Part shown: positions 7,390 through 63,857 of the stretch, piece after piece
Layout of the letters: the number at the start of each line of letters is the position of its first letter
Position numbering within the stretch: position 1 is the first letter of the stretch
Source: Octopus vulgaris
Taxonomy: Eukaryota
Direction of reading: 5' to 3'
DNA: 64,000 nucleotides
Assembly: GCA_951406725.2 (NCBI GenBank)
Contig: OX597815.1
Span: 172,980,001-173,044,000 of the forward strand
Notes under the pieces: model-generated
What the model was told of the DNA's origin: nothing
The model's database searches: none
Seen by the model: only the letters and a program-made list of their open reading frames with translations
Made by a program: the position numbers and the translations under genes

Positions 7390-7640
7390 ACATATATATA
7401 TATATATTTTTTTATTTATGATGAGGGTATTACAATACATAAATGCCAGGCACTAGGAGGGACTCTTAAAATCAAAACTACCAAAATAAATAAACACATA
7501 GTATCGAATACAAGGGAATGCAACTCTCGAAGCGAGCCTTTTAAAAACAGAATTCAGCTGCATATCACATGATTTCATAATTAGTGCACAAATGCACTTT
7601 TTAATCCTCATTTTTAAATATACATATATATATATATATA

Positions 7641-8156
7641 TACATAAATTATTAGAGAGTTACCACTATGTGGATAGCTCTAGTGCTAAAAATAGCTCCG
7701 ATAGTATACGTTTCCAATGAGTCTTAGCATGCTTTTCGCGGGGAATTTGAGGCATAACTAAAAATGCAATTGGTTAAACCGCACGTGTATTTGACGCTTG
7801 TGTAAGTCTAATAAATTGTATTTAAGACAAACCTCTGCTGATGATTTATAGATGTCTATGTAAGTAAAATTACATATTACATTAGTAATGAAACAATTTG
7901 TTCAGGGTCAATCTATTTATTCGTTATGTTTCACTTTCCTTCCGTTAAATGTAATGTTATTTCTAATTGGAAACATCTTTTCTGTGGCTATACTATCAGA
8001 GCTATTTTTAGCACTAGAGCTATCCACATAGTGGTAACTCTCTAATAATTTATGTATAAATTTGTATTTTCTCCCTAGTTTTTTGTGCTAAGCCACTTGG
8101 TGTTAAATTAATGGTATTATTAAATTAATATCAATTTTTCACCCTCATTTATAAAT
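7641..8156 (+). mobile_element. Penelope-like non-coding fragment with a partial inverted duplication, in (AT)n
   Basis: 68-bp inverted repeat 7641-7708 vs 7989-8056 (1 mismatch) enclosing a hammerhead motif; (AT)n flanks. Confidence 0.6.
7831..7908 (+). ncRNA. type I hammerhead ribozyme motif
   Basis: Stem I CTCTG/CAGGG; CTGATGA 7838-7844; long stem II with TATGTAA/TTACATA hairpin; GAAAC-AATTT-GTT 7890-7902 (GUU triplet). Confidence 0.65.
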
Positions 8157-12469: not shown

Positions 12470-12867
12470 TTTACCTTATACTTGTTCCAGTCAGTGGACC
12501 GTGGCCATGCTGAGACATTGCTTTGAAGAAATTTTAGTCAAATGAATCAACCCCAGTACTTTTTTAAGCCTAGTACATATTCTGTCAGTCTCTTTTGCCA
12601 AACTGCTAGGTTACAGGTACGTAACCACACCAAGACCAGTTGTCAAGTGGTGGTGGGGGACAAACACAGACACACACACACATAGATGTATATATACATA
12701 TATATATGACTGGCTTCTTTCAGTTTCTGTTTACTAATACCACTCACAAGACTTTGGTTGGCCCAAGGCTATAGTAGACATTTGCCCAAGATGCCGCACA
12801 CTGGAACTGAACCCAGAACCATACGATTAGGAAGCAAGCTTCTTACCACACAGTCACATAGCCATGC

Positions 12868-13704: not shown

Positions 13705-13775
<71 letters not shown>
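13570..13775. repeat. (AT)n array with a short insert
   Basis: Direct inspection. Confidence 0.9.
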
Positions 13776-13779
<4 letters not shown>

Positions 13780-13976
13780 TAAAATGTTTAAGTAGTTGAA
13801 TGAATTATCCTAGTATGGATAATTCGGTTAACCGATACCCGGTAGCAAATTTACGTCAGAAAGCACGGTTGAAGCTACATGCCAAGGGCAGAAATCACGT
13901 GCTTTCATGTGGAAATTTGTGTGTTTTTTTACTATAGATAAATGAAAGAATGGAGTCGAACGACGATTTAACAAAA

Positions 13977-14075
13977 TTCCTTTATTCTCGACACATGTTT
14001 CGAAGACTGCATATTCTCAATTCCGAAGGAATAAAGGGTGCATTATGCCGTCTTCTCATCAGGAAAGACAAGGAA
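13977..14075 (-). ncRNA. type I hammerhead ribozyme (mirror copy)
   Basis: Reverse-complement copy of 14177-14275 in the left arm of the inverted repeat. Confidence 0.85.
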
Positions 14076-14176
14076 CTTATGTCAGCATCAAGACGAACAA
14101 AAACTTTTAGATGACTGCTATGGACTCCGTGTGGCAGTCATCTAAAAGTTTTTGTTCGTCTTGATGCTGACATATG

Positions 14177-14275
14177 TTCCTTGTCTTTCCTGATGAGAAG
14201 ACGGCATAATGCACCCTTTATTCCTTCGGAATTGAGAATATGCAGTCTTCGAAACATGTGTCGAGAATAAAGGAA
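14177..14275 (+). ncRNA. type I hammerhead ribozyme (intact core)
   Basis: Stem I TTCCTT..TTTC/GAGA..AAGGAA; CTGATGA 14190-14196; stem II GAAGAC/GTCTTC extended by GCATA/TATGC; GAAAC-ATGT-GTC 14251-14262, with predicted cleavage after C14262. Confidence 0.85.
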
Positions 14276-14308
14276 TTTTGTTAAATCGTCGTTCAACTCC
14301 ATTCTTTC

Positions 14309-14347
<39 letters not shown>

Positions 14348-16867: not shown

Positions 16868-17864
16868 CTCCCATCAAAAGAGTTTAATTTTAAGTATTTT
16901 TTCAAAATATCTATTCTGCTTGCACAATAAATTTCTACTGATTTCAACTACGCCAGTTCATAAAGGATATTTAAGGCCACAAAACCCATTTTTGGTAAAC
17001 AAGTAAGATTTCCAAAAAGTCAACAAGTGGGACGTGTCTTATTTTGAGGGTTCTGAAAATCTTAGCTTGCTTAGTGCAGCTTTAATAGTTGAATTCGTCA
17101 TTATCTAAAACGATTATTCAAAGTTTGCATGGAGAAAAGGAGTTGACTGAGATGTACTCATTCTTAGGTTTCTCAATTTATAATAACTATATTTGTAAAC
17201 ATCAACTATACTGTCGACCAAACCACGAGACATTAAATCAATTAACTCTTGCAAAAATACAAGTTATTTGCATAATCACTTGAAAACCACTCATTTTAAA
17301 TTTACTGTTGTTGTTGAGTGTCCCCATGTGTTCTTCATGAGCAGCTCTAAGGAAACTGGCCTTATCTATATTATACAAATCTTTTCACATTCCTTTAGCA
17401 TCACCAGTAGATAAGACTTTGTAATAAATGAGTATTGTGGAAAGAAATGATTTTAATCTTCTTTTTCATCATCTTGTTGCTGTTGTTGTTCTTCGTCTCC
17501 TCCTCCTCCTCCTCCCATACTCATTTGCTTTTTCTCCATCTCCTCCACCTTCACCCCTCACTTCACTACCATCTTCACCAACATCATCACTGTCATCATC
17601 ATTCTTGTCATCATTGTCCTTGCAGCTGTTGCCATGCAGCCTGAGAGGGTGCCATGCATGAGTAAATCAAAAGAAAATATCTTTATGTTTTTTATAAAAT
17701 TTTTAAAGTTAGCTGCAAGTAAAAAGATGATCAACTAATTAATACTGGAGTTAATATCGCTGATAGGAATGAAGAACAGAAGCAAATCTAGAATTGTATT
17801 CAGTGAGACTATAGTCTTCCAGGTGCTATGTAACCCACTCTTTCATATTCCTAAGAAGAAACCC

Positions 17865-18016
17865 TAAATTAGAGAATGGAGTACTGTGGCAAAAATTTTA
17901 TCACAAGTGAGATAAACTATTTCTACTGTTGACCAACTTAAAGTGGTCAACAATGTAGAAATATTTTATCTCACTTGTGATAAAATCTTTACCATAGAGC
18001 ACCATTCTCAAATTTA
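17865..18016. repeat. palindromic (hairpin) element, MITE-like
   Basis: About 70-bp arms (GAGAATGG..TTTTATCACAAGTGAGATAAA..TTGACCA / TGGTCAA..TTTATCTCACTTGTGATAAAA..CCATTCTC) with a loop of a few nt. Confidence 0.75.
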
Positions 18017-18263
18017 TGGTTCATCATTGCATTGATAAACTATTAGTCATTAAATATATTATCCATTGCAAAAATACAAGTTCTTCAAATAAATATTCAT
18101 TTTTTTTTCTTTTCTTTTCCCCTCTAAGGAAAATTAACCAAGTGTTGCTGGATTGAATTAAACTATTTTAATAATTGATTATCTAAAATGCAATACAAAG
18201 AAGCAAGCTGTTAGAATTGTTGGCACATCTGACAAAATGCTTCACAGTATTTCTTCTGATTCA

Positions 18264-19831: not shown

Positions 19832-20031
19832 CAGTTCTGTATTTAAGAGATGAGGAATTATGTACATTATTTACATTATTTACATTTGACAGATATTTGT
19901 CCTCATCTTGTTTGTTGTTAGCACAACGTTTTGGCTGAGATACCCTCCAGCCTTCATCAGGTGTCTTGGGAAAATTTCAAACCTGGGTTCTCATTCCTAA
20001 CATATTTTTCGATGTTACTATTATTATTATA

Positions 20032-20072
<41 letters not shown>

Positions 20073-20245
20073 CATTATTATTATTATTATTATTATAACA
20101 TCGAAAAATACATTAGGAATGAGAACCCAGGTTTGAAATTTCCCCAAGACACCTGATGAAGGCTGGAGGGTATATCAGCCAAAACGTGTTAACAACAAAC
20201 AAGATGAGGACAAATATCCATCAAATGTAAATAATGTAAATAATG
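19832..20245. mobile_element. fold-back insertion with two degenerate minimal hammerheads and a 13-bp TSD
   Basis: Arms 19865-20017 and 20096-20245 around (ATT)n. TSD AAGATGTACCTTA at 19819-19831 and 20246-20258. GACAC-CTGATGA-A-GGCTGG..TCAGCC-AAAACG in both arms. Confidence 0.7.
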
Positions 20246-22656: not shown

Positions 22657-23192
22657 ACTGAAGAGGTCACCCAGGCACTGCAAAAACTAAGTAACTGGAA
22701 GGCACCTAGACACGATAAGATCCCCAACATCTGGTTAAAATATCTGACAGGAACACACAAGCTGGCTGAAAAATTTAATGACATACTAGCAGAGTCAGAG
22801 ACAATGCCTGAATGGCTCATGAAAGGAAAAACTATCCTAATTCCCAAATATGTGGAGATGGACAAGAAACAATAGATCATATTGTCTCTGGCTGCCCAGT
22901 CCTGGCTAAGAAGGAATATATTCACAGGCATGACAGAGTTGGGACCTACATACACTGGAAGCTATGCCAATACTATGGAATAACAACAGAAAAGATCACA
23001 GAAAATGAGAAAGCAACCATACTATGGGATATGCCAATACACACAGACAGGAAAATTAAGCCCAATATAAAAGATATAGTTGTCAGAGATCATGAAGAAA
23101 AAAAAATGCTTCCTAATTGATGTATCAATACCAACAGATGACAATGTTTCTCTAAAAGAAATGGAGAAACTTTCAAAATACAAAGACCTGGA
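22657..23192 (+). mobile_element. R4/Dong-type (restriction-like endonuclease) non-LTR retrotransposon fragment
   Basis: CCHC-like CGDGQETIDHIVSGC, RHD, ILWDMPIHTD, DIVV..FLIDVSIP..EKLSKYKDLE; begins at an (AAT)n tract. Confidence 0.85.
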
Positions 23193-27535: not shown

Positions 27536-28005
27536 TTAATGTCTACTTTTCCATGCTTGCATGGGCCAGACAAGAGTATGTTGGAGCAGAATTTTCTGTA
27601 GTGGGGTGGATAGGTGCAGGTGTGGCTATCTGGTAAAAAGCTTGCTTCCCAACCACATGGCTCCAGATTTAGTCCCACAGCATGATACCTAGGGCAAGTG
27701 TCTTCCACTATATCCTTGGGCTGATCACAGACTTATGAGTGGATTTGGAAAACAGAAACTGGAAGAAGCTTGTTATATATTCTTTTACTTGTTTCAGTCA
27801 TTTGACTGCAGCCATGCTGGAGCACCACCTTTAGTTGAACAAATCGACCCCAGGACTTATTCTTTGTAAGCCTAGTACTTATTCTATCGGTCTCTTTTAC
27901 AGAACTGCTAAGTTACGGGATATAAACACACCAACATCAGTGTCAAGTGATGTTGGGGGGACAAAGACAGACACACAAATACATACATATATATACATAC
28001 ATACA

Positions 28006-28044
<39 letters not shown>

Positions 28045-28673
28045 CATGCTTCTTTCAGTTTCCATCTACCAAATCCACTAACAAGTCTTTGGTCAGCCCG
28101 AGGCTATAGTAGAGGACACTTGCCCAAGGTGCCATGCAATGAGACTGTACCTGGAACCATGTGGTTGAGAAGCAAGCATATATAGTATATATCTATGTAT
28201 GTGTCTTTGTGTCCGTGTTTGTTCCCCATCACCACTTGACAACCAGTGTTGATGCATTTACATCCCCATAACTTAACAGTTCAGCAAAAAAGACTGATAG
28301 AATACACATACATATCTGTATAGATATATATACAATACATACACACACACACACACATACTGATATATAATTAAGAGATCCAAAGATCTAAGTTTCGGAA
28401 GTTTGTAAGATTTGAGAAGTCCATGGTAGGTATAAAAAACAATGGTCAGGAACAATAATAATTTGTTGGCATTGAAGGTTGTAATCTTTTCCTATATTAA
28501 AGTTCAATAAGCTGAAAAAAATTTCCATAGCTCACGGTTATCAACTTGAGTTGCTATGAATGTGAATAAAAATCCAAACTAAAGGAGTGGAGCAGGTAAA
28601 ATTCAGGTTACATGTTTCCTACATAGCAGATCCTTTAATGTAATGTATATAATGTATGTATGTATGTATTTAT

Positions 28674-32514: not shown

Positions 32515-32899
32515 GCACAGGAGTGGCTGAGTGGTAAGTAGCTCGCTTACGAACCACATGGTTCCGGGTTCAGTCCCACTGTGTGGCACCTTGGGCAAGT
32601 GTCTTTTACTATAGCCTCGGGCCGACCAAAGCCTTGTGAGTGGATTTGGTAGACGTTAACTGAAAGAAGCCTGTTGTATATATATATATGTATATATGTG
32701 TGTGTCTGTGTTTGTCCCCCCAACATTGCCTGACAACCGATGCTGGTGTGTTTACGTCCCCATAACTTAGCGGTTTGGCAAAAGAGACCAATAGAATAAG
32801 TACTAGGCTTACAAAGAATACGTCCTGGGGTCGATTTGCTCAACTAAAGGTGGTGCTCCAGCATGGCCGCAGTCAAATGACTGAAACAAGTAAAAGAGT
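32515..32899 (+). mobile_element. tRNA-derived CORE-type SINE (family A), full length
   Basis: A/B-box head (GGAGTGGCTG..GGTAAG..GGTTCAGTCCC), CACCTTGGGCAAGTG core, internal TA/TG tract, tail GAAACAAGTAAAAGAGTA. Confidence 0.9.
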
Positions 32900-35800
32900 A
32901 TAATCAGACACTCGGAGAGAAATTATTATCTTGACACCATAGAAATTAAAAGCATGCACTATGAGCCAATCATTACAAAAGACTATGAAAGAATAATTTG
33001 CCCCTGGAAATTCATAAGACTTTCAGTCATAAAACCTAAAGCATCTACCATCTGTACTGTTTCTGTTCCACTATCATACACAACTTTCAATACTACATCC
33101 CACTCAATTGAGGGGGGTCTTGCTTTGAAGGTACTTAGTAACTTCCCTAGTGCTGGTGCTACAAGAAAAGTACCCTGTAAAGTGGTTGGCATTAGGAAGG
33201 ATATCCAGCTGTAGAAACCATACCAAAGCAGACACTGGAGCTCAGTGCTTCCCTCTGGTTCATTGGTTTTTGTTGAATCATCCAATCCGTGCCAGCATGG
33301 AAAAATGATGATGATCATCATCATAATGATATGTTGGCATTTTTATTATTACTTAGTTCAGGGAGGTTAGTTGTAGAATTATTAGCTCATTTGACAAAAT
33401 ACCATATGGTATTTTTTTTCCAGCCATTTACATTCTGTGTTCAAATTCAGTTGACACCAGCTTTGCCTTTAATCCTGTCAGGGAGGAGTCAACAAAATAA
33501 AATAAAATAAAATGCCAGTCAAGTACTGCAGTTAACAAAATTGACTAACTCCTCCCTTCAGAATTGCTGGCCTTTGTGCTTAAATTAGAAGCTTTAATTA
33601 TTATTTAATCTGATAGAGAAGTACAATATGTCGTCATCATCCATCATCATTGTTTTTACATCTACTTTTTCCATGCTAATATACGTTAGATAAGACTTAT
33701 TAAGGCAGTATTCTAAGGTTGGATGCTAGTTCTGTCACCAGTCTTCATTTTTCAAGTATTCTGTTTATATTCCACTAGTCTTCACATCAAACCAATGAAA
33801 CTGCCAAGCTACCAGACTTATTCTTTAGGATAAATGTGAAGAAAAGTAGCTGCTCAATGTCAATATGAAGACATGCAGAACACTTGCACACACACACACA
33901 CCATACATTATATTTACATATATATGTACACACACACACACAATAGGCTTCAATGCAGTTTTCATCTACAACATTTCACTCATTGTTAAATCAGAGGCTA
34001 TAGAAGACACTTTTCCAATGAACCATGCAATGGTATAGAACCTGAAACCACACAGATGCAAAGCAAACTTTGTAACCACACAACATTTAGTACTATAATG
34101 GTCAGCTTATGCTCTCTTTTTCTATTTATTTAGTAACCAAAAAGCTGACAGAATTCTTAGCATGTCAGACAAAACGTTTCGTAGCTTTTCTTCTGAGTTC
34201 AAATACTATTCAGCTTTGCCTTTCATCCTTTTAGGTTGATGAAAGAAGTACCAGTTGGGCACTGGGGTTGATTTAATTGACTAATCCCTGCCTTCTAAAA
34301 GTGTTGGCTTTGTACTAAAATTTTAAACCAATTTAGTAGTCCAAGATATTAAAGGTCCAGGTGACAATTATTTATTTAAAACTGACCAATATATATGATT
34401 TTTAATAATAATACTAATTGCTCCTAACATTAAACAAAAGACCAGAAATTGTGGGAAGGGGTTAATCAATTAAATCAACTCCTTTGCTTATCTTAACAAT
34501 TTTAGGATGAAAGGCAAAGCTGAACTCAGTGGAAGAGAGACTGGTTTAGAAGTGGTATGAGTAAAACATTGCTATGAAGTGTTGTAGTAGTGGTGGTGGT
34601 GGTAGTAGTAGTAGTAGTAGCAGCAGCAGCTATATCAGTAGTTTGCCATACCAGATATTTAGGCCTGTTCCATAATCAAACCTTCCTCTGTTACTCACTC
34701 ACTACAGAACATGCATTCTATTTTAAAGTTTTAGAATAAATTTTACTGACACAGAAAAAAGTTGTTTTCAGAACTCATTCACCTCATGCAAGATATAATC
34801 ATATCAAAGTACATGCATAAATATCACCGGTAACATCCCATCCAAACCTATCCTAATTACATCTCTTTATTTATGGCACCCTTATGCCTCATCTTCACAA
34901 AACTTATTGTAAACACCATTCTTAACCTAATCATTCTTCTCCAAACAACCACCTTTGTTAACATGGTCTGCAGAAGAAAGTTTAAAGAGCAAGTGTAATA
35001 CCAATTACTTTTGTCTGACCAACTCAAAATTCATGGAAAGACTAGACACAACTTCTCCTCTGAGGATTAATCTTTTAGTATTTAAATCTGCCATATTAAA
35101 CCCAAATATTCTACATATTTTATGTTAAAACCAGCTAGATCCAGCTTATCACACCTACCTTACAATGTTGTTATAAAAATAAACAATCACATCAACAAAA
35201 TCTTGAAGTTATATAATACATGATTAATTCAAAACAATGTGAATAAATAAGCATTTCATTCAACAGAGTAATCTGAAAGGTAATATTTATCCTCTCTTAA
35301 ACGTGAATCTTCTGTTAGAACAAAGTATACTGCAGTAGATACCATGATAGAAACTCACACATTGGCTTTTGGTGCAAAATGCACACTTGTTTATATTGCT
35401 AGTAGGGAGATAAATCCTTGTCATCTCCAGTACTGAGACCTCCAGTTCATGTGATTTTGACTTTCTGTGGTCTCATCAATAATGGACGCATGACCGCTGG
35501 AGATAGCAGCAACTCATCTCCCTCCCAGTGATATATAATCTAAATGCTAAAGGGCTAAGCCACAGAACTGAACCTGAGTGCTGATGAGAGAATGAGCTCT
35601 GATAAAGGCACTCAAGGTGCTAAGTAGTGGTGTTAAACTGGAAGCCAAATTAAGGGTAACACCCAAGTAGAACAAGGCAGGATCTGAACTCAGATTGCAA
35701 TGCAAAAATGAATAATAAATAAAAATACTGCAAAGCATCCAGTTCAGCATTTTTATAGTTCTGCCAATTTACAGGTCTAGATTGGTACTTTTTTAAGAAC

Positions 35801-42346: not shown

Positions 42347-43255
42347 TTGGGTCATCCCATAAATAATGTGATTTTTTAATACTTTTTTTATTTTTCAAAA
42401 TTAAGATAAACAAAGTTCTTTTCTAATCTAAAATATATTCTCCTTCATTTTCTACAATGCTCTTCCATTTATCTGCTAGACTTGCTAGGCCCCTCTTCCA
42501 AAATTCACTTGTCCGTAATGAAAAATACTTCTCTAGCACTGTTTTGACCTCATCTACAGAATTCATATTCTTTCCAGCCAAATGATTTTGAAGACTGTGG
42601 AATAAATGAAATCAGATGGGGCACTGTCTGGCGAATATGGTGGGTGGGGCATCATTTCTTATTCAAACTGCTCCCTTTGGATTGTCATCCTTGCTGCATG
42701 TGGCTGAGCATTATCCTGATGGAAGAACACCTTTCGTTTTAAAACCAAAGATGGTCATTTTCCAATGGCATGCAGGTGTTGATGAATGGTTGAATGACCA
42801 AATCTAAGCTTCTCTGCTAGTTCCTCAAAGGTTATGATGTGATTTTGTTCCACCAGGGTTTACAGGACATCCTTGTTGAGCTCTACAGATGTTCCAGGAC
42901 AAGGCTGTAGTTTGCGGCTTGGAATTTTTAGAATCACTGTTGACATTGGCTTACACCTATTGTCCGATCCCCATATACTGCATTAATATTCCTTACACTT
43001 TCCATTGCATAGTTGCCTTTATTGAACTCATAAAGCAAAACATGTTGAATATGCTCCTTTGCCACTTCCATTATAGGTTTGAAAGAATAACTGTTACAAT
43101 TGAACTGCACTCTTCAAAACTTGCACCAAGAACAAGTACAAGGTAAAATTACTACCTGCTTTTATAACAAGTTGATGCAGGCAGTTTATCCCCTCCCGCT
43201 CCAACTTTTAGTTCATGAAATTGAAAAAAACTGCAGTATTTATGGGATAACCCAA
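42347..43255 (-). mobile_element. internally deleted mariner transposon
   Basis: TIRs TTGGGTyATCCCATAAATA with TA TSDs. Remnants EELAEKLRFGHSTIHQHL and PSDFHLFHSLQNHL...LADKWKSIVENEGEYI. Confidence 0.9.
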
Positions 43256-44060: not shown

Positions 44061-44137
44061 CTGAAAATGCAAATAAACAAAATAAATAAAAATTTTAAAT
44101 AACTAAATAAATAAAAATTTTAAATATTTTTACATAT

Positions 44138-44497
44138 AGGCACAAGAGTGGCTGTGTGGTAAGTAGCTTGCTTACCAACCACATTTGTTTCAGTCCCATT
44201 GCGTGGCACCTATAAGCCTCGGGCCGACCAAAGCCTTGTGAGTGGATTTGGTAGATAGAAACTGAAAGAAGCCTGTCGTATGTGTACGTGTGTGTGCCCG
44301 TGTGTGTGTGTCTGTGTTTGACCCCCAACATCACTGGTGTGTTTACGTCCCCCGTAACTTAGCAGTTCGGCAAAACAGACCGATAGAATAAGTACTAGGT
44401 TTACAAAAAATAAGTCCTGGAGTCGATTTGCTTGACTAGAGGTGGTGCTCCAGCATAGCCACAGTCAAATGATTGAAACAAGTAAAAGAATAAAAGA
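44138..44497 (+). mobile_element. SINE family A
   Basis: Same head, core and tail as 32515, with small deletions. Confidence 0.9.
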
Positions 44498-53249: not shown

Positions 53250-53701
53250 GGCACAGCCATGCCTTTGGTTGTCAGAAGTGAAAGTAGTCAACTTCGTGTA
53301 TTTCCGTCAGGTTTATACCTTCGTTAATTTACGCCGTTTATTTACGTACCACCACGCTGTTAGGTTTATAAAACAATTGAAGTTCAGTTTAAAGTTTATA
53401 AATAAATACATTTCATTCCATGTTCTGTTTAAACTTTATAAATAAATATATTCTATTCATTATTGTTTTTAAAAAAGAAATCACACCAAATCTGCACAAA
53501 TGACCACCACCACCGCGATCACATACACCAATCATACACACGTGTGTGTGTATATGTGGCTATATGTCTGACTAATGTGTGTGTGTCTGTATTTATTGTA
53601 TGTGTGTATAAGTAGTTATATGCTTATATTATCCATTATAGTAATATTTTTCTGTTGAAATCCGTTTTAAGGCGGTCAATAGTTTAATTAAAGATGTGTC
53701 T

Positions 53702-53733
<32 letters not shown>

Positions 53734-53800
53734 ACATGTGTATACATATATATATATATATACATGTGTATACATATATATATATATACATGTGTATACA

Positions 53801-53841
<41 letters not shown>

Positions 53842-54048
53842 TGTATACATATATATATATACACATGTGTATACATTACACATGAAATGTATTTATTTAT
53901 AAACTTTAAACTGAACTTCAATTGTTTTATAAACCTAACAGCGTGGTGGTACGTAAATAAACGGCGTAAATTAACGAAGGTATAAACCTGACGGAAATAC
54001 ACGAAGTTGACTACTTTCACTTCTGACAACCAAAGGCATGACTGTGCC
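53250..54048. mobile_element. non-autonomous Merlin-type MITE
   Basis: 167-bp TIRs (53250-53416 and 53882-54048, 1 mismatch) starting GGCAC; perfect 8-bp TSD GAAAAGTG at 53242-53249 and 54049-54056. Confidence 0.9.
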
Positions 54049-55273: not shown

Positions 55274-56076
55274 GGTACTATTTAAGAAGAGTGGTCCCGG
55301 TGCGCACACTCGCGCTAGCTAGTCGTGATTAGTCGACCCTACGACTACCTAGCGCGAGTGCGCGTATGCAAATTAATAGATTGCTCTTAAAACGTCGTTT
55401 TACGTTCTTCTAATAACTTTCAATCGAATTTGTATGAACATTTGTTATAGGATCGACAAAATTTTCGGAATGGTTCACCTTGAAATGGATGCATTTTGGT
55501 GTCACATTTATTTCAGTAATCACATTGTACGCACTCCAAATTTATTTACGTTGTTTAGAAAAAAAATTTATTTAGTTTACTCTTTTACTTGTTTCAATCA
55601 TTTGACTGTGGCCATGCTAGAGCACCGCCTTTAGTCGAGCAAATCGACCCCAGGACTTATTCTTTGTAAGCCAAGTACTTATTCTATCGATGTCTTTTGC
55701 CGAACCGATAAGTTACGGGGACGTAAACACACCAGCATCGGTTGTCAAGCGATGTTTGGGGGGGGGGGACAAACACAGACACACACACACATGCATCTAT
55801 ATATACATATATACGACGGGCTTCACAAGGCTTTGGTCGGTCCGAAGCTATAGTAGAAGACACTTGCCCTAGGTGTCACGCAGTGGGAATGAACCCAGAA
55901 TCATGTGGTTCGTAAGTTTGTTTAGAAAAAATAATTTATTTACTATGTTTAAAAAAATTAATCTTTTAATTTGCATACGCGCACTCGCCCTAAGTAGTCG
56001 TAGGATCGACTAGTCACGACTACCTAGCGCGGATGCGCGAGTGTGCGCACCGGCACCACTCTTCTTAACTAGTACC
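55274..56076. mobile_element. MITE with about 100-bp CpG-rich TIRs (GGTACTA...), containing a SINE
   Basis: Inverted 55274-55376 vs about 55967-56076; GAAAT directly duplicated on both sides. Confidence 0.8.
55577..55915 (-). mobile_element. SINE family A inside a MITE
   Basis: Reverse complement of family A. Confidence 0.9.
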
Positions 56077-56079
56077 GAA

Positions 56080-57022
56080 ATTTATTGTGGAGTGCCTCGT
56101 GTTAGTGGAAGTTATTCCCGTTCAGTTGACAGAGTAACTTGGAGATGAACTGTTTGCCGCAAAACTATCAGCATACGGAAAGGCTCGTTTTTTTTTAATT
56201 TGGCAAATAATAGCTTTTACTCATTTATGGTGTATCAGTATTGGAAGAGGTCTTGGTAGTGAAGCGATAATGGTGCAATGTGAGATAACTTTATCCACAA
56301 CATAGGCGCAGGAGTGGCTGTGTGGTAAGTAGCTTGTTTACCAACCACATGGTTCCGGGTTCAGTCCCACTGCGTGGCACCTTGGGCAAGTGTCTTCTAC
56401 TATAGTCTCGGGCCGACCAAAGCCTTGTGAGTGGATTTGGTAGACGGAAACTGAAATAAGCCCGTCGTATATATATATGCGTGTGTGTGTTTGTCCCCCT
56501 AGCATTGCTTGACAACCGATGCTGGTGTGTTTATGTCCCCCTTATTTAGCGGTTCGGCAAAAGACACCGATAGAATAAGTACTGGGCTTACAAAAGAATA
56601 AGTTCCGGGGTCGAGTTGCTCGATTAAAGGCGGTGCTCCAGCATGGCCGCAGTCAAATGACTGAAACAAGTAAAAGAGTAAAGAGAGAGACTGGAATCAG
56701 TTCTGCCGTGATGTTTGTGTAGCACATTTTCTACAACATCCAGGAAAAATAGGTGGTACACGGGTTATTGTAGATATTTGACGAAACACTAATGCAAAAG
56801 CAAAAATATAATGTTGGCCGCTGCATTGAACATCAGTGAGTATTTGAAGGATACTCCCCCTCACAAAAACCTGGATATTTAGTACCAGTTGGAGACCGAA
56901 CTGCTCAAACATTGCTCCCAATTATTAATGAATTCGTATTGCCAGGTAGCATTATTTATTCAGATAAATGGAAAGCATATCAAAGTTTGTCACAAAATAC
57001 ATCATGTAAACATTTGACGGTA
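56080..57022 (+). pseudogene. Merlin transposase remnant (DDE_Tnp_IS1595-like), split by a SINE
   Basis: TISIRKGSFF (about 56165); DWNQFCRDVC...GKIGGTRVIVDI/DET (56689-56790); DRTAQTLLPIINEFVLPGSIIYSDKWKAYQSL...HLTV (56894-57022); frameshifted. Confidence 0.85.
56303..56685 (+). mobile_element. SINE family A inserted in the Merlin transposase
   Basis: Near-consensus full-length copy. Confidence 0.9.
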
Positions 57023-58386
57023 GAGGTGCGCTTCTAAAGAAGCGCCGAATTACTTAATATCGTGTTTGCTTCTATGAAAATCGTTTACCTTTAAAGCGAA
57101 AAAACAAAACCGACACATACAACAAGTATGTAAAACATGTTTCACTTGTTTCAGCCCTTCAATTTCAGTGAGCCGTAAGATTGTTCCGCACGTGTACCTT
57201 TTTTTACTGGGTGGCGAGGGGTATGTGGATTAATTTTTGAAGTTTTTCCTTTAAAATCTGAAACTAATTAATTTTTTGTTTGCCATATCTCCGTATTTTT
57301 CCACGTAGACTAAAAAAAAATTCGAAAAAAAGTTTAAAAATTGGTGGGAATCTCCGTCATCGAAAACCTAGGAGCCCGCTGAAAAGAAAAAATTTCCAAA
57401 AGCTCGGTTTTTGTGGTGAGGTGACTGTCGTCTAGCTCCACCGTCAAATGAAGTCCTCACCAGAAAACTAGTTATGCTAAAAATAACAGCTAAAGGTCTG
57501 GTACAGAGAAATATGCTGATTTTTTTTCCCCATATTAAGTAAATTCCCAGGTAAAGGTAGAAGACACCAGAAGCAAAAATAAGGAATATACACGAGCAGC
57601 TAAATATAGAAGCGTAAAGTATAATTTGTTAGATAATCTCTACAATAAACATGATATTGAATGAAATAATTCCCCATTTGAACTTTTTTAAATTACTTGT
57701 GTGTGCTAATCTATGGATGCACAAACGCATAAAAACGGGAAAATGAAACAAATATGGACTTGTTCCGAAACGGTGCCGAGTGGAACGGTTCTCAAAAAAT
57801 GACTCCAAATTGATTTCCTCCAAAATTCCTATGTCCTTAAAATTGGCGTAGCCCAAGGTATATTTGTATAGAATTTCATTAAAAAGTATCCATTTTCTTG
57901 AAAGTTAAGACGAATTGAAGTGGACTGCGGTGAATTTTCCGAAATTCCCCACCCTTTCCCCAAAAAGATTTTGTATATTTAGAATCTACATGATATAACA
58001 CATATTCGTAGAAAATTTCATTAAAAAATATCCATCTTCCTGAAAGTTATGATCATCCAAATTCGGCAGGGGGCAGAAATCTGTAATTATGCCAAGAGTA
58101 CTAGGTACGGATTAAATGGAATGAGTTCAACACAAAACACTATAAATGGGTTTACCCATGATAAAATTGTAAATAATTCAAATTTAATCAAGTCATCATT
58201 TCTTATGTATAAATACAAATGCACAAACGATAAGTGATAGATGCTAGTTATAGCCTCCTTGAACTTTTTCCGGCTTTATAATGTATTCATCATCTACTGA
58301 TACCGAAATTTAATGATAAGAGTGTCTTCATAACAAACCTTGATACAAGTAGAAAATTACATAGTTATTAATTACATAGTACTCAC

Positions 58387-60348: not shown

Positions 60349-62040
60349 ATGCCGCCCAAATGCGCTACAGGTTTCTGGCAGTGAACGTAAGTGCCAGACA
60401 AAGGTTATGATACCCCATGAGAAGACACAACTTTTGGATATGTTCCAAGAAGGTAAAAGTTATGCTGCAGTAGGTCGCTATTGTGTTATCAACAAAAGCA
60501 CCGAACATTACATAAAGAAGAATGAAGTGGCAAGCAGGACTAGCAGTATGTTTCTGTGAAAGTGCCATAAAGATAAGGATAGTGAGAAATAACCACCTCG
60601 TCAGGATGGAATTTGCCTTGGCATTGTGGATCAGTGACTGCTAGAAGAAAAAACATCCCCTTGAGTGGTAACATCATCTGCAAGAAAGCGCAGAAATTAT
60701 ACCAGCAGTTCAACAAAGGAGACGGAGCAGAAGGCACTAAAGAACCACAACCAAGATCATTGACAATACCAGAACCCAAAGATTTTCAAACCAGCAAGGG
60801 ATGGTCTGACCGCTTACAGAAACGGTTTAAAATAATGTGTGTTTCCCTGCATGGAGAGACAGCATCAGCCAACAAAAAAGCTGCTGAGAACTACCTCAAG
60901 ACATTCAGGTAGATCAGTGGAGGATAAGGGATACAAGCTGGAACAGGTTTTCAGTATGGAGACCAGTTTGTTCTGGAAGAAGGTGCCTTCCTGAATGTAC
61001 ATCATGAAGGACTAAACCAGAGCCTCAGCATTTAAGGCACAGAAGGACAGAGTGATGCTGGCTTCATGAAGCCAGGACATATCTACATGTCTGTGAATCC
61101 AAGGGCCTTCAAAAATAAGAATAAAAACTTGCTGCCTATCCACTGGATGCACAACCCCAAGGCTTGGATTACCAAAGGGTCTAACTTTGAATTGGTTCCA
61201 CCAATGCTTCATCCCTCATGCCAAGGAATACCTCCAAAATGTTTGCATGGAATTCAAGATGTTGCTTGCTATGGATAATGCTGGTGGTCACTTTTTGGAT
61301 TTGAATCACAAGGGAGTTCAAGTCAAGTTCCTCCCTGTCAACACCACCTCCCTCATCTAGCCTATGGATCAAGGCATCATCTATACCTTCAAAACATTTT
61401 ATACTCAGAACTCTCTCTAACACCTTGTGGATGCAATGGATTTGGACGAGAATTTCAATTTAAAGGAGTACTGATATAACTTCACAATTGCAACATGCCT
61501 GTTGGTCATCCATGCTGCTCTTTAAAGACATGAAAAAAGAAATCCTCATCACATGTTGGGAGAAGGTGTGGCCTTCTCACCTGAAGATATTCAGCACAAG
61601 ACTTTCAATAATGTGCCAAAACTGGCAAAGGTTTTGTCATCACACAAGATGAGGTCAGTGACCTCATCGATGCCCACTTGGAACCCTGATAGACGAAGAT
61701 TTGTTGGAGTTAACAAAGTCTGCCAGCTAAGAGGAGGAGAATGCACCAGATCTAGAGGCAGAGAAGGATGAAGTGTGCCTGGCAATCAGACATATCTCTG
61801 ATCTTTTAAGAACAGCAAAGGAATTGCAAGGGAAGGTGGAAGCATGGGATCCCTATATGGTTTGGTCTCTCCAGTTTAAAAATGCTACTGATGCTGCCAT
61901 GCAGACATAAAACTCTCCTCACCACCATGAAGAAACAACAACTGCAACTTCCTATCATAATGTCCCTGAAGCCCACCAAGAAGGCCTTGCATGAAGATAT
62001 GACAACACCTGAAAAAGAGGCATCATCTGAAGAGCTTTAA
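60349..62040 (+). pseudogene. Tigger/pogo (CENP-B-like) transposase remnant
   Basis: MPPK start; LLDMFQEGKSYAAVGR (HTH); FQTSKGWSDRLQKRF; MDNAGGH; PVNTTSLIxPMDQGII; many stops and frameshifts. Confidence 0.9.
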
Positions 62041-62689
62041 ATCTTCTTTGCTACAGAGTCATTACCTTCATTATTTTCATCATCATCGTCTTAAATAAAT
62101 ATCATTCATTATTGATGAGTCACAGTACCTTTTACTTTATTTTTTATTAAATTATTATTATCTATACATATAAATTTGACATGGGCGATTCTTTCTTGGG
62201 ATTCACGATCAAATGGCTGGGTGAAATTGTACGAAAAATTACACAGATGTGTAGAATAATCTGGTGGTGATGCTAGGCTTTGTATTTTTTGCATAGCTCC
62301 CATGGTTACTGAGATAATCTACTATAATAATACTCTTGTGTTTATGAATGAGAAAAGAAAGAGTGATAGAGGAATAAGGAATGAAGGGGTAGTGGGATGA
62401 TGAAAATTGTACTCTAAAAAAATAAATCAAACAGCGTTTCAATTCTGTGAATATATATGTGTGTATGTAAAAGTGGGATGTGAATGTGTGTGTGTGTGTG
62501 TGTGCGCATGTGCAGTGGAAGTGGGATGGTTTATCTTTGTTTGCTTAGTATTTGGGTTTATTTTTTGATTTCATTGAATCTTGGTTGGTTTTTTTTTTTT
62601 TTTGGTGGTCAGTTATTTTTAATGTTTTGACAGAAAAAGTCATTCTAAAATTGTTTTTTAATGTAAGCGTGCCCAAACAAGTTGAATGC

Positions 62690-63250
62690 TTACACGAACC
62701 TTAGCAAAGGCATGAGTAAAAGCAGCAGCAAAGTACAAAGAAAAGAGAGTTGGGGCAAGGATGTCACCCTGCTTGACACCATTCTCTACAGGAATGGGTC
62801 CCTCCATGGCACCACCAACGTGACCCAAGCCTCCATCCCATCATGAAATGATTTAACTATAGATACAAAGCGATCCGGACATCCAAGTTTGCCAAGTATT
62901 TTCCATAGAAAGGCCCTATTTACAGTATCAAAGGCCTTTGTTAATGAATACCTGGACAAGATCCATATTCTGCTCATAGCACTTCTCCTGCATCTGTCTT
63001 GCTGTGAAAATCATATCCATTGTCCCTCTACCAGATCGGAAGCCACATTGAGATTCAGAAAGGACATCATTTACGAGACACCCATTCAGATGGGTAAGAA
63101 GAATATTTGCCAGAACCTTGCCAGCAGCTGATAGTAGAGAAATACCTCTGTAGTTACCACACGTTGTTCTGGCTCCTTTTCCTTTATATAGAGGAAGAAT
63201 AATTGCATCCTTCCAGTCCTTAGGGATTGCACCATCCCTCCAGACTGCAC
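62690..63250 (-). mobile_element. RTE (BovB-like) LINE reverse transcriptase fragment
   Basis: DWKDAIILPLYKGKG...GNYRGISLLS, ESQCGFRSGRGTMDMIF, LTKAFDTVNR, GVKQGDILAPTLFSLYF. Confidence 0.9.
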
Positions 63251-63857
63251 TAATAATTATATGTGGTAAGTAATAATTAAAATCAAACTAAAGTATAATA
63301 TAATCGTAACATAACAAAAGTAAAAATAGCAATTGGTATAAAATTGCATCAATGACTTGAACTTGAATAAGTGGTTTCACATGAATGGGAATAAATTAAA
63401 AATAAAATTAGTGTGCAGAAATGGAATAGTCCAGATGGAGGTGTGCACATACCGTTTACTATGGCTTTTACATTAGATTATCTGCTAATTAGCTAGCATT
63501 AAGTATCTATATGAAGTTCGGCTGTATGTAATGTCTGTTTTCTCAAACAGCCGCTTCTACTGAGTACTGCTGTTGGTGTATTTCTTATACATAAAGGACT
63601 ATAGCTTCAACTGCGTACTGCTTTTTGATTCACCGTAAGGTTTGTTGTTATTATTATTACTGTTTAACTATTGTTATCACCTTTGTTGGTTCCTCGTAAG
63701 GGAAACGTTGTTGTGTTGCATTTGTTAAATAATTGTAAACTGTAACCCTCCCCATTTGGGAGAAGGAGCTTTGGTTATTGTTTAAAAATTGAATTGTGTC
63801 CCTGTTTGGGGAAATTGACAATATTTTCACCGTTTACACGGAAGCATTTTTGTTACA

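Follow-up and report, generated by a model that had tools for sequence, protein, structure and literature searches.

Here, we present an analysis of a fold-back that carries a hammerhead motif on each strand of an octopus chromosome. All positions refer to the window, i.e., the whole stretch of 64,000 nucleotides that was analysed. We consider it highly probable that the fold-back belongs to a single insertion into a (TA)n tract, in which two 5'-truncated copies of a hammerhead-bearing repeat lie head to head, that this repeat most likely represents the 3' end of a Penelope-like retrotransposon (PLE), and that the palindrome is a likely by-product of integration. Four structural features of PLEs are present in the insertion: a type I hammerhead near the 3' end, a 5'-truncated copy in inverted orientation, a tail on one side only, and (TA)n as the target. 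The initial annotation, which had proposed a PLE-type type I hammerhead in an inverted insertion, is supported on these points. Its view of the 181-bp unit as a non-autonomous ribozyme retroelement is not supported, as each of the two copies is a fragment of a longer element with its 5' part missing.

Structure of the insertion

The fold-back is a near-perfect inverted repeat, as originally described, with arms of 181 bp each at 13938-14118 and 14134-14314, a 15-nt spacer at 14119-14133, and 2 mismatches, which are located solely at 14077/14175 and 13957/14295. The limits 13938..14314 apply to the arms but are too narrow for the insertion, which extends over 13789-14314. Similarly, the statement that the palindrome lies within an (AT)n array is correct for the right arm, which adjoins (TA)n at 14312-14341, but not for the left arm, which continues for ~145 nt of the same repeat out to 13789, with (AT)n at 13713-13774. 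The features are as follows (basis in brackets).

13713..13774, no strand: (AT)n target tract on the left, separated from the long terminus by 14 nt (sequence)
13789..14118, minus strand: left copy, 5'-truncated element end reaching the long 3' terminus, 330 nt (high-copy depth over the full span in four of four runs)
13789..13937, minus strand: one-sided 3' tail, ~145-150 nt, extending from the short terminus (13933-13938) to the long one (13789) (loose ends)
13802..13825, minus strand: hairpin with a perfect 9-bp stem and a 6-nt loop, just inside the long terminus (sequence and fold)
13938..14118, minus strand: left arm of the fold-back (inverted-repeat alignment)
13976..14076, minus strand: type I hammerhead motif of the left copy, core starting at 14062, predicted cut after 13990 (motif layout and fold)
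14119..14133, plus strand: spacer, which belongs to the right copy as upstream element sequence; the copies meet head to head at 14118 with 1 nt microhomology (loose ends)
14119..14314, plus strand: right copy, 196 nt, an element end with 5' truncation that reaches only the short 3' terminus (arm comparison and contigs)
14176..14276, plus strand: type I hammerhead motif of the right copy, predicted cut after C14262 (motif layout)
14312..14341, no strand: right (TA)n target tract (sequence)

Contigs from four sequencing runs (X1, X2, X5, and X7) were aligned to the reference interval 13780-14160. Loose (TA)n ends precede 13789 in 16 X1 contigs and 13933 in 24 X1 and 23 X2 contigs, and the comparison of the two arms shows that the tail is missing from the right copy. 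The reverse complement of the spacer opens the loose ends behind 14118 (19 contigs in X2 and 8 in X5) and behind 14119 (2 contigs in X7); because the loose ends behind 14118 start with this sequence, the spacer represents upstream sequence of the right copy. From the spacer, the tail, and the two family termini, we conclude that two 5'-truncated copies in head-to-head orientation, one of them with a tail, make up the insertion. Any target-site duplication at 13789-14314 would be masked by the (TA)n flanks. No further copy of the repeat was found within the 64-kb window, and no open frame runs through the tail of the 13789-14118 copy. Except for an insertion behind 13840, none of the variants listed falls within 13793-13851, and the hairpin at 13802..13825 is possibly a recognition element for the reverse transcriptase (RT).

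Both arms carry alleles that are minor in all four runs, i.e., at 14234 (1-7%) and at 14258 (18-35%). These shared minor alleles argue for a single source of the two arms; the species of the window may differ from that of the runs. The 2 differences in 181 bp agree with the young age initially proposed and suggest that the insertion is roughly 1-2 million years old, based on a calibration in which a JC distance of 0.09 corresponds to 25 My (PMC13282606); given possible arm-arm conversion and a CpG site, this is a rough estimate.

Copies of the repeat in sequencing runs

Parts of the stretch are present in 20 of the 24 runs listed, which come from 9 studies and carry 4 organism labels. In X1, X2, X5, and X7, 3229, 1944, 1359, and 237 contigs aligned, respectively, mostly with 90-99% identity, and the arm is repeated at high copy number under three organism labels. 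In X1, contigs over unique junctions have a depth of 36-50 compared with 17,339 in one variant row and a peak of 940,072. Based on this contrast, the family has hundreds of copies at least and likely thousands, with summed contig depth indicating the order of magnitude only. Many other copies exist, as had been anticipated. The element goes on upstream (loose ends with a median of up to 66 nt and one of 97 nt) and, as the tail, downstream.

We regard it as scarcely credible that the fold-back is an assembly or library artefact derived from one copy of a high-copy repeat. Although inverted PLE structures trouble assemblers (PMC8557442) and no listed piece spans the whole stretch (the best run contains 0.67 of its words), the arms differ at 2 sites and have distinct ends and flanks, and a 75-nt contig in X7 (record 32) matches 14089-14160 with 0 differences and has the 30+15+30 shape expected of a hairpin cap. 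This contig has 30 letters left of the junction, one below the bridging rule, and X7 may share its source with the window.

At least 9 distinct inter-copy junctions are listed, with depths of 6.6-57, a single-locus level, and one extra row is a small internal deletion. Of these 9, the orientation is clearly head to head in 3 and ambiguous in 5 strand switches, and a single one (in X5) is a direct tandem. One break lies inside the tail (13819-13883) for 7 of the 8 inverted junctions listed, a small sample. Separately, an identical head-to-head junction joining 13842 to 14116, with the same letters in between, is present in X1 and X2, and this insertion is therefore common to two organism labels.

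The junctions also bear on the idea that the repeat is a non-autonomous retrozyme, i.e., a unit of ~400 nt that has a circular RNA intermediate and is mobilised in trans by a PLE, in which case the locus would be an inverted pair of truncated monomers. This idea, which we consider improbable, draws on the direct tandem junction in X5, the long stems I and II, the lack of a linked ORF, and the known span of 330 nt plus at least ~80 nt upstream, which is near the range of 170-400 nt (PMC7229834); moreover, a derivation of retrozymes from the pseudo-LTRs of PLEs has been described (10.64898/2026.07.22.740005). However, 8 of the 9 inter-copy junctions listed are inverted, none of those listed is a head-to-tail junction of high depth, the locus itself contains no tandem, the best-supported 3' loose ends are (TA)n, and the depth drops toward the 5' side (partly confounded by the end of the reference). 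Using Pfam, we found no PLE RT or GIY-YIG domain in 257 of the 259 window ORFs of at least 58 aa (two low-complexity ORFs were omitted). As no ORF for these domains is linked, the element may or may not be autonomous, and the label retrozyme is not supported.

None of the runs containing the stretch is listed as RNA, and RNA status of X7 is a guess. Because the substitution counts of X7 (5 A>G and 9 T>C) match those of the DNA runs, we draw no inference on transcription or editing from them. Pattern scans for the element gave 0 matches in viral contigs, metagenomes, and prokaryote genomes; one of the metagenome patterns fitted the minority allele only.

The hammerhead motif

The core CTGATGA starts at 14190 on the plus strand and at 14062 on the minus strand. 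In the right copy, stem I (14176-14189/14263-14276) comprises 4 bp and 7 bp around an internal loop, the core comprises 14190-14196 and 14251-14254 (the GAAA), a 6-bp stem II (14197-14202/14245-14250) closes a 42-nt structured insert within 14197-14250, and stem III (14254-14261) is followed by the predicted cleavage site in GTC (14260-14262). The CUGANGA and GAAA core, an NUH site, and three helices are thus all present. The G10.1-C11.1 pair is formed by G14197 and C14250, and stem II follows the core directly with no unpaired base between A9 and G10.1. The core is located 125 nt from the short terminus and ~270 nt from the long terminus. A descriptor of stems I, II, and III detected just these two sites in the window compared with 0.04 (loose) or 0.01 (strict) per 64-kb window in 100 simulated windows. 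The motif is missed by the Rfam hammerhead models, which gave no match with E up to 1 for the window or 10 for the locus, so that the Infernal search recommended in the initial annotation did not detect a hammerhead; the Rfam search yielded just simple-repeat and generic hairpin miRNA matches below threshold. Accordingly, the description of a complete type I hammerhead on each strand is upheld for the motif but not for the term intact, in view of the missing Rfam match and of a change at 14175 that is predicted to block the ribozyme.

Two details were refined. The CUUCGG sequence in the stem II extension does form a hairpin in the predictions, but with a 5-bp stem and a 3-nt loop rather than a UUCG tetraloop. 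Stem III is palindromic and of the kind that forms dimers, but the required register is the 8 nt at 14254-14261 and not the 6-nt ACAUGU. In this copy, this register contains two G-U pairs, and in an energy evaluation two stem III registers tie at -6.0 kcal/mol; with A at 14258, which accounts for 65-82% of the family depth, it is a perfect 8-nt palindrome. Thus, a short palindromic stem III apparently suited to cleavage as a dimer is perfect in most family copies.

In the predicted folds, the left copy by itself forms stem II (P=0.96) and the distal part of stem I (P=0.97-0.99), while in the right copy by itself the cleavage site is covered by a helix (P=0.99). The latter cleavage site is predicted to be sequestered because of the change at 14175, as the left copy without this change has a probability of 0.004 for this helix. 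In the predicted fold of a read-through RNA, the arm-arm duplex has a probability above 0.999 and stem II one of about 1e-54. The duplex would therefore win completely, and the earlier suggestion that a transcript could fold either as a self-cleaving RNA or as a silencing or editing hairpin is not supported. Based on these models, the locus probably has a catalytically silent ribozyme. We also considered and rejected a 9-bp pairing of 14215-14223 with 14265-14273 (-8.8 kcal/mol alone); it is not populated in the folds, and two common variants break it.

These predictions are also relevant for the possibility, to which we assign very little weight, that the palindrome is a functional or selected unit, either as a mobile fold-back resembling a MITE or, for the host, as a ribozyme switch or hairpin RNA. 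The near-perfect 181-bp stem would fit such a unit, and in octopus the share of dsRNA-forming loci and of hyper-editing is exceptionally high (PMC5625713). However, the ends are unequal, the junction positions vary among copies, the right-arm change is predicted to block cleavage, no predicted fold has the duplex and the ribozyme in competition, and the locus lies past the sole host gene found, ~25 kb from its last coding exon.

Among family copies, we considered 27 unphased variants at 26 arm positions, after a junction row was dropped and 3 further rows were left out. A pair is kept or created by 11 of the 14 variants at paired sites (p=0.08); among the common ones (mean frequency of 20% or more, a threshold chosen by the analyst), this is the case for 9 of 9 (p=0.006), with 41/72 transitions as the null. 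Stem-preserving variation among the copies, a point that the initial annotation had raised as a check, is thus evident for the common variants. Many copies have a U-A or C-G pair in place of the C-A mismatch at 14185/14267. In the rows listed for the four runs, no variant falls on a core position; for core and stem III together, 1 of 19 positions is variant (p=0.20), and the scarcity of core variants is not significant. From the sequence variation, the family ribozyme looks maintained and built for dimers.

Proposed mechanism of integration

If our preferred interpretation of a PLE end is correct, the GIY-YIG endonuclease of the element would nick both strands of the (TA)n target, and each nick would prime reverse transcription on one transcript or on sister transcripts, with one start at the long site and the other at the short site, ~145 nt apart. 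Both cDNAs would stop early, and their 3' ends would then be joined via the 1 nt microhomology. A long-start cDNA extending past the short site would give overlapping pieces and a fold-back, while one stopping inside the tail would give an inversion without a palindrome. The ribozyme would likely act in the tandem transcripts of the element itself, as a stem III dimer and perhaps with the help of proteins, while read-through RNA at the locus would form the 181-bp duplex and be open to editing or silencing.

Among the possible mechanisms, we mildly favour twin priming as outlined above, treat self-priming on an antisense template followed by staggered trimming, which would yield the same anatomy, as a serious although less probable candidate, and leave a small share to other routes. 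Self-priming on an antisense template is the published alternative (PMC3846280), and resolution by the endonuclease has been described to make the tail (PMC8557442). The spacer is in the sense of the right copy; a simple fold-back could therefore start only from the right end, yet it would not supply the left tail, and consequently either two priming events or a longer hairpin that was trimmed unevenly is needed. For an anole PLE, both strands are cleaved and extended in vitro, and two start sites define the tail (PMC11167929). The longer internal stretch is associated with the long terminus in an unrelated insertion at 7630-8155 (described below) and with the short terminus at 13789-14314. 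With one long and one short end each, the two insertions fit independent priming at two nicks from two fixed sites. Our literature search found no paper in which twin priming is applied to PLEs.

How inverted copies of PLEs arise, by twin priming or by self-priming, is an open point in PLE biology, and the long tail of this family spaces the two start sites enough to tell the two mechanisms apart via junction counts. The locus itself is ordinary retroelement debris, and the importance is modest and at the level of the family, a high-copy octopus hammerhead repeat missed by Rfam. Such fold-backs would be ready-made substrates for ADAR, and they occur in the animal group whose hyper-editing signal is the strongest. 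In a hyper-editing survey, Penelope was heavily edited in lizard, and octopus repeats were left unannotated (PMC5625713); a literature search found no paper directly linking octopus hyper-editing with PLE fold-backs. It is conceivable, but in our judgment unlikely, that head-to-head PLE ends are a main octopus source of self-contained long dsRNA and help to explain the record A-to-I hyper-editing, that a family with two fixed start sites 145 nt apart is a genome-wide natural record of twin-primed PLE integration, and that the ribozyme is a working variant with a long stem II that Rfam misses.

Comparison with known elements

The head-to-head arrangement of PLEs has already been published (PMC4209133, PMC8557442, PMC3846280), and the standard PLE signature combines a tail on one side with a 5'-truncated copy in inverted orientation and insertion at (TA)n (PMC8557442). 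Likewise, the EN+ PLEs described in PMC8557442 and PMC3846280 (Penelope/Poseidon, Neptune, Hydra, and Naiad) have head-to-head, 5'-truncated insertions with a one-sided tail, a (TA)n target, and a 3' type I hammerhead; in contrast, the octopus copies are too short to keep an ORF, and their tail is ~145 nt compared with the published 30-40. Very short 5'-truncated PLE insertions are normal, with a median of 128 bp in Chlamydomonas (PMC9977147). For Penelope-13_HM, hammerheads are tabulated for both strands owing to an inverted copy (PMC8557442), and hammerhead pairs on opposite strands 100-700 bp apart were reported for Schistosoma mansoni in 2014 (PMC4209133).

With the minimal PLE hammerheads described in PMC4209133, the octopus motif shares type I, an enlarged helix II, the G10.1-C11.1 pair, and a palindromic helix III for dimers; PLE hammerheads are described as built for dimer cleavage (PMC4209133, PMC6466107, PMC6765202). 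However, the octopus motif lacks the extra base between A9 and G10.1, its helix II contains the 42-nt structured insert, and its helix I has a second 7-bp stem past the internal loop. The ~145-nt tail, the long stem II, and the lack of an extra base after A9 are distinctive of the family.

PAc, a Poseidon element of Anolis carolinensis (PMC11167929), similarly has two start sites that define the tail, an AT-rich target, and a stem-loop near a start site; its ORF begins in stem II and the tail lies within the ORF, whereas the octopus copy has no open frame there. Hydra-1_Obim (PMC8557442 supplement) has an octopus host, a (TA)n target, and a 3' type I hammerhead in common with the family. Identity with this element was rejected because its hammerhead core and stems differ in sequence in a by-eye comparison with the supplement. 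Naiad_Obim/Ovul (same supplement) share the octopus host and (TA)n, but Naiads are without canonical hammerheads. Term searches of the PMC8557442 supplement returned none of 6 short motifs of the element. The metazoan non-LTR retrozymes of PMC7229834 have a type I hammerhead, an ORF-less locus, and a low GC content in common with the insertion, which has no head-to-tail array. In O. vulgaris, 190 PLE families make up 6.83% of the genome, and 31 were recently active (PMC13282606). We found no paper on this repeat family; Repbase and the O. vulgaris repeat library lay outside the search and may well contain it.

Other elements and genes in the window

The window contains two other head-to-head insertions, both within 7 kb of 13789-14314 and with no sequence in common with it. 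The one at 19832-20245 is older and of another family, with hammerhead cores at 20153 (plus strand) and 19960 (minus strand); G12 reads A in both arms, (ATT)n is at the centre, a 33-nt tail is on the left only, and a 13-bp target duplication is present (19819-19831/20246-20258). The one at 7630-8155 represents a third family and has one core at 7838 (plus strand), an inverted end of 79 bp (7630-7708/7989-8067), ~90 extra bases on the right, and (TA)n on both sides; in its core, a long stem II is flanked by one additional T on either side, a feature of published Hydra-clade motifs. A hammerhead core is present in 3 of the 7 close inverted pairs of the window. An old palindrome (84%) at 17860-18021 is without such a core, and at 53250-54048, 203-bp inverted repeats (93%) flank a microsatellite-rich middle in a MITE-like arrangement.

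A DNTTIP2-like gene (DNTTIP2/Fcf2 family) with six coding exons occupies 58739-39233 on the minus strand. Identity over the first exon is 97% with Octopus sinensis and 83% with O. bimaculoides, and the host is an Octopus. An intronic position of the fold-back in this gene was rejected, the last coding exon being at 39310-39233. Broken transposon pieces recognised by Pfam are located at 22812-23117 (zf-RVT, weak), 42937-43113 (Mos1 HTH), 56840-57034 (IS1595-like DDE), 60586-61357 (Tc5/DDE_1), and 62661-63287 (RVT_1). Finally, a dispersed repeat of ~390 bp with 69-88% identity, which we presume to be a family resembling an octopus SINE, is present at 12470-12857, 27776-28177, 32515-32900, 44136-44497, 55576-55916, and 56302-56682.
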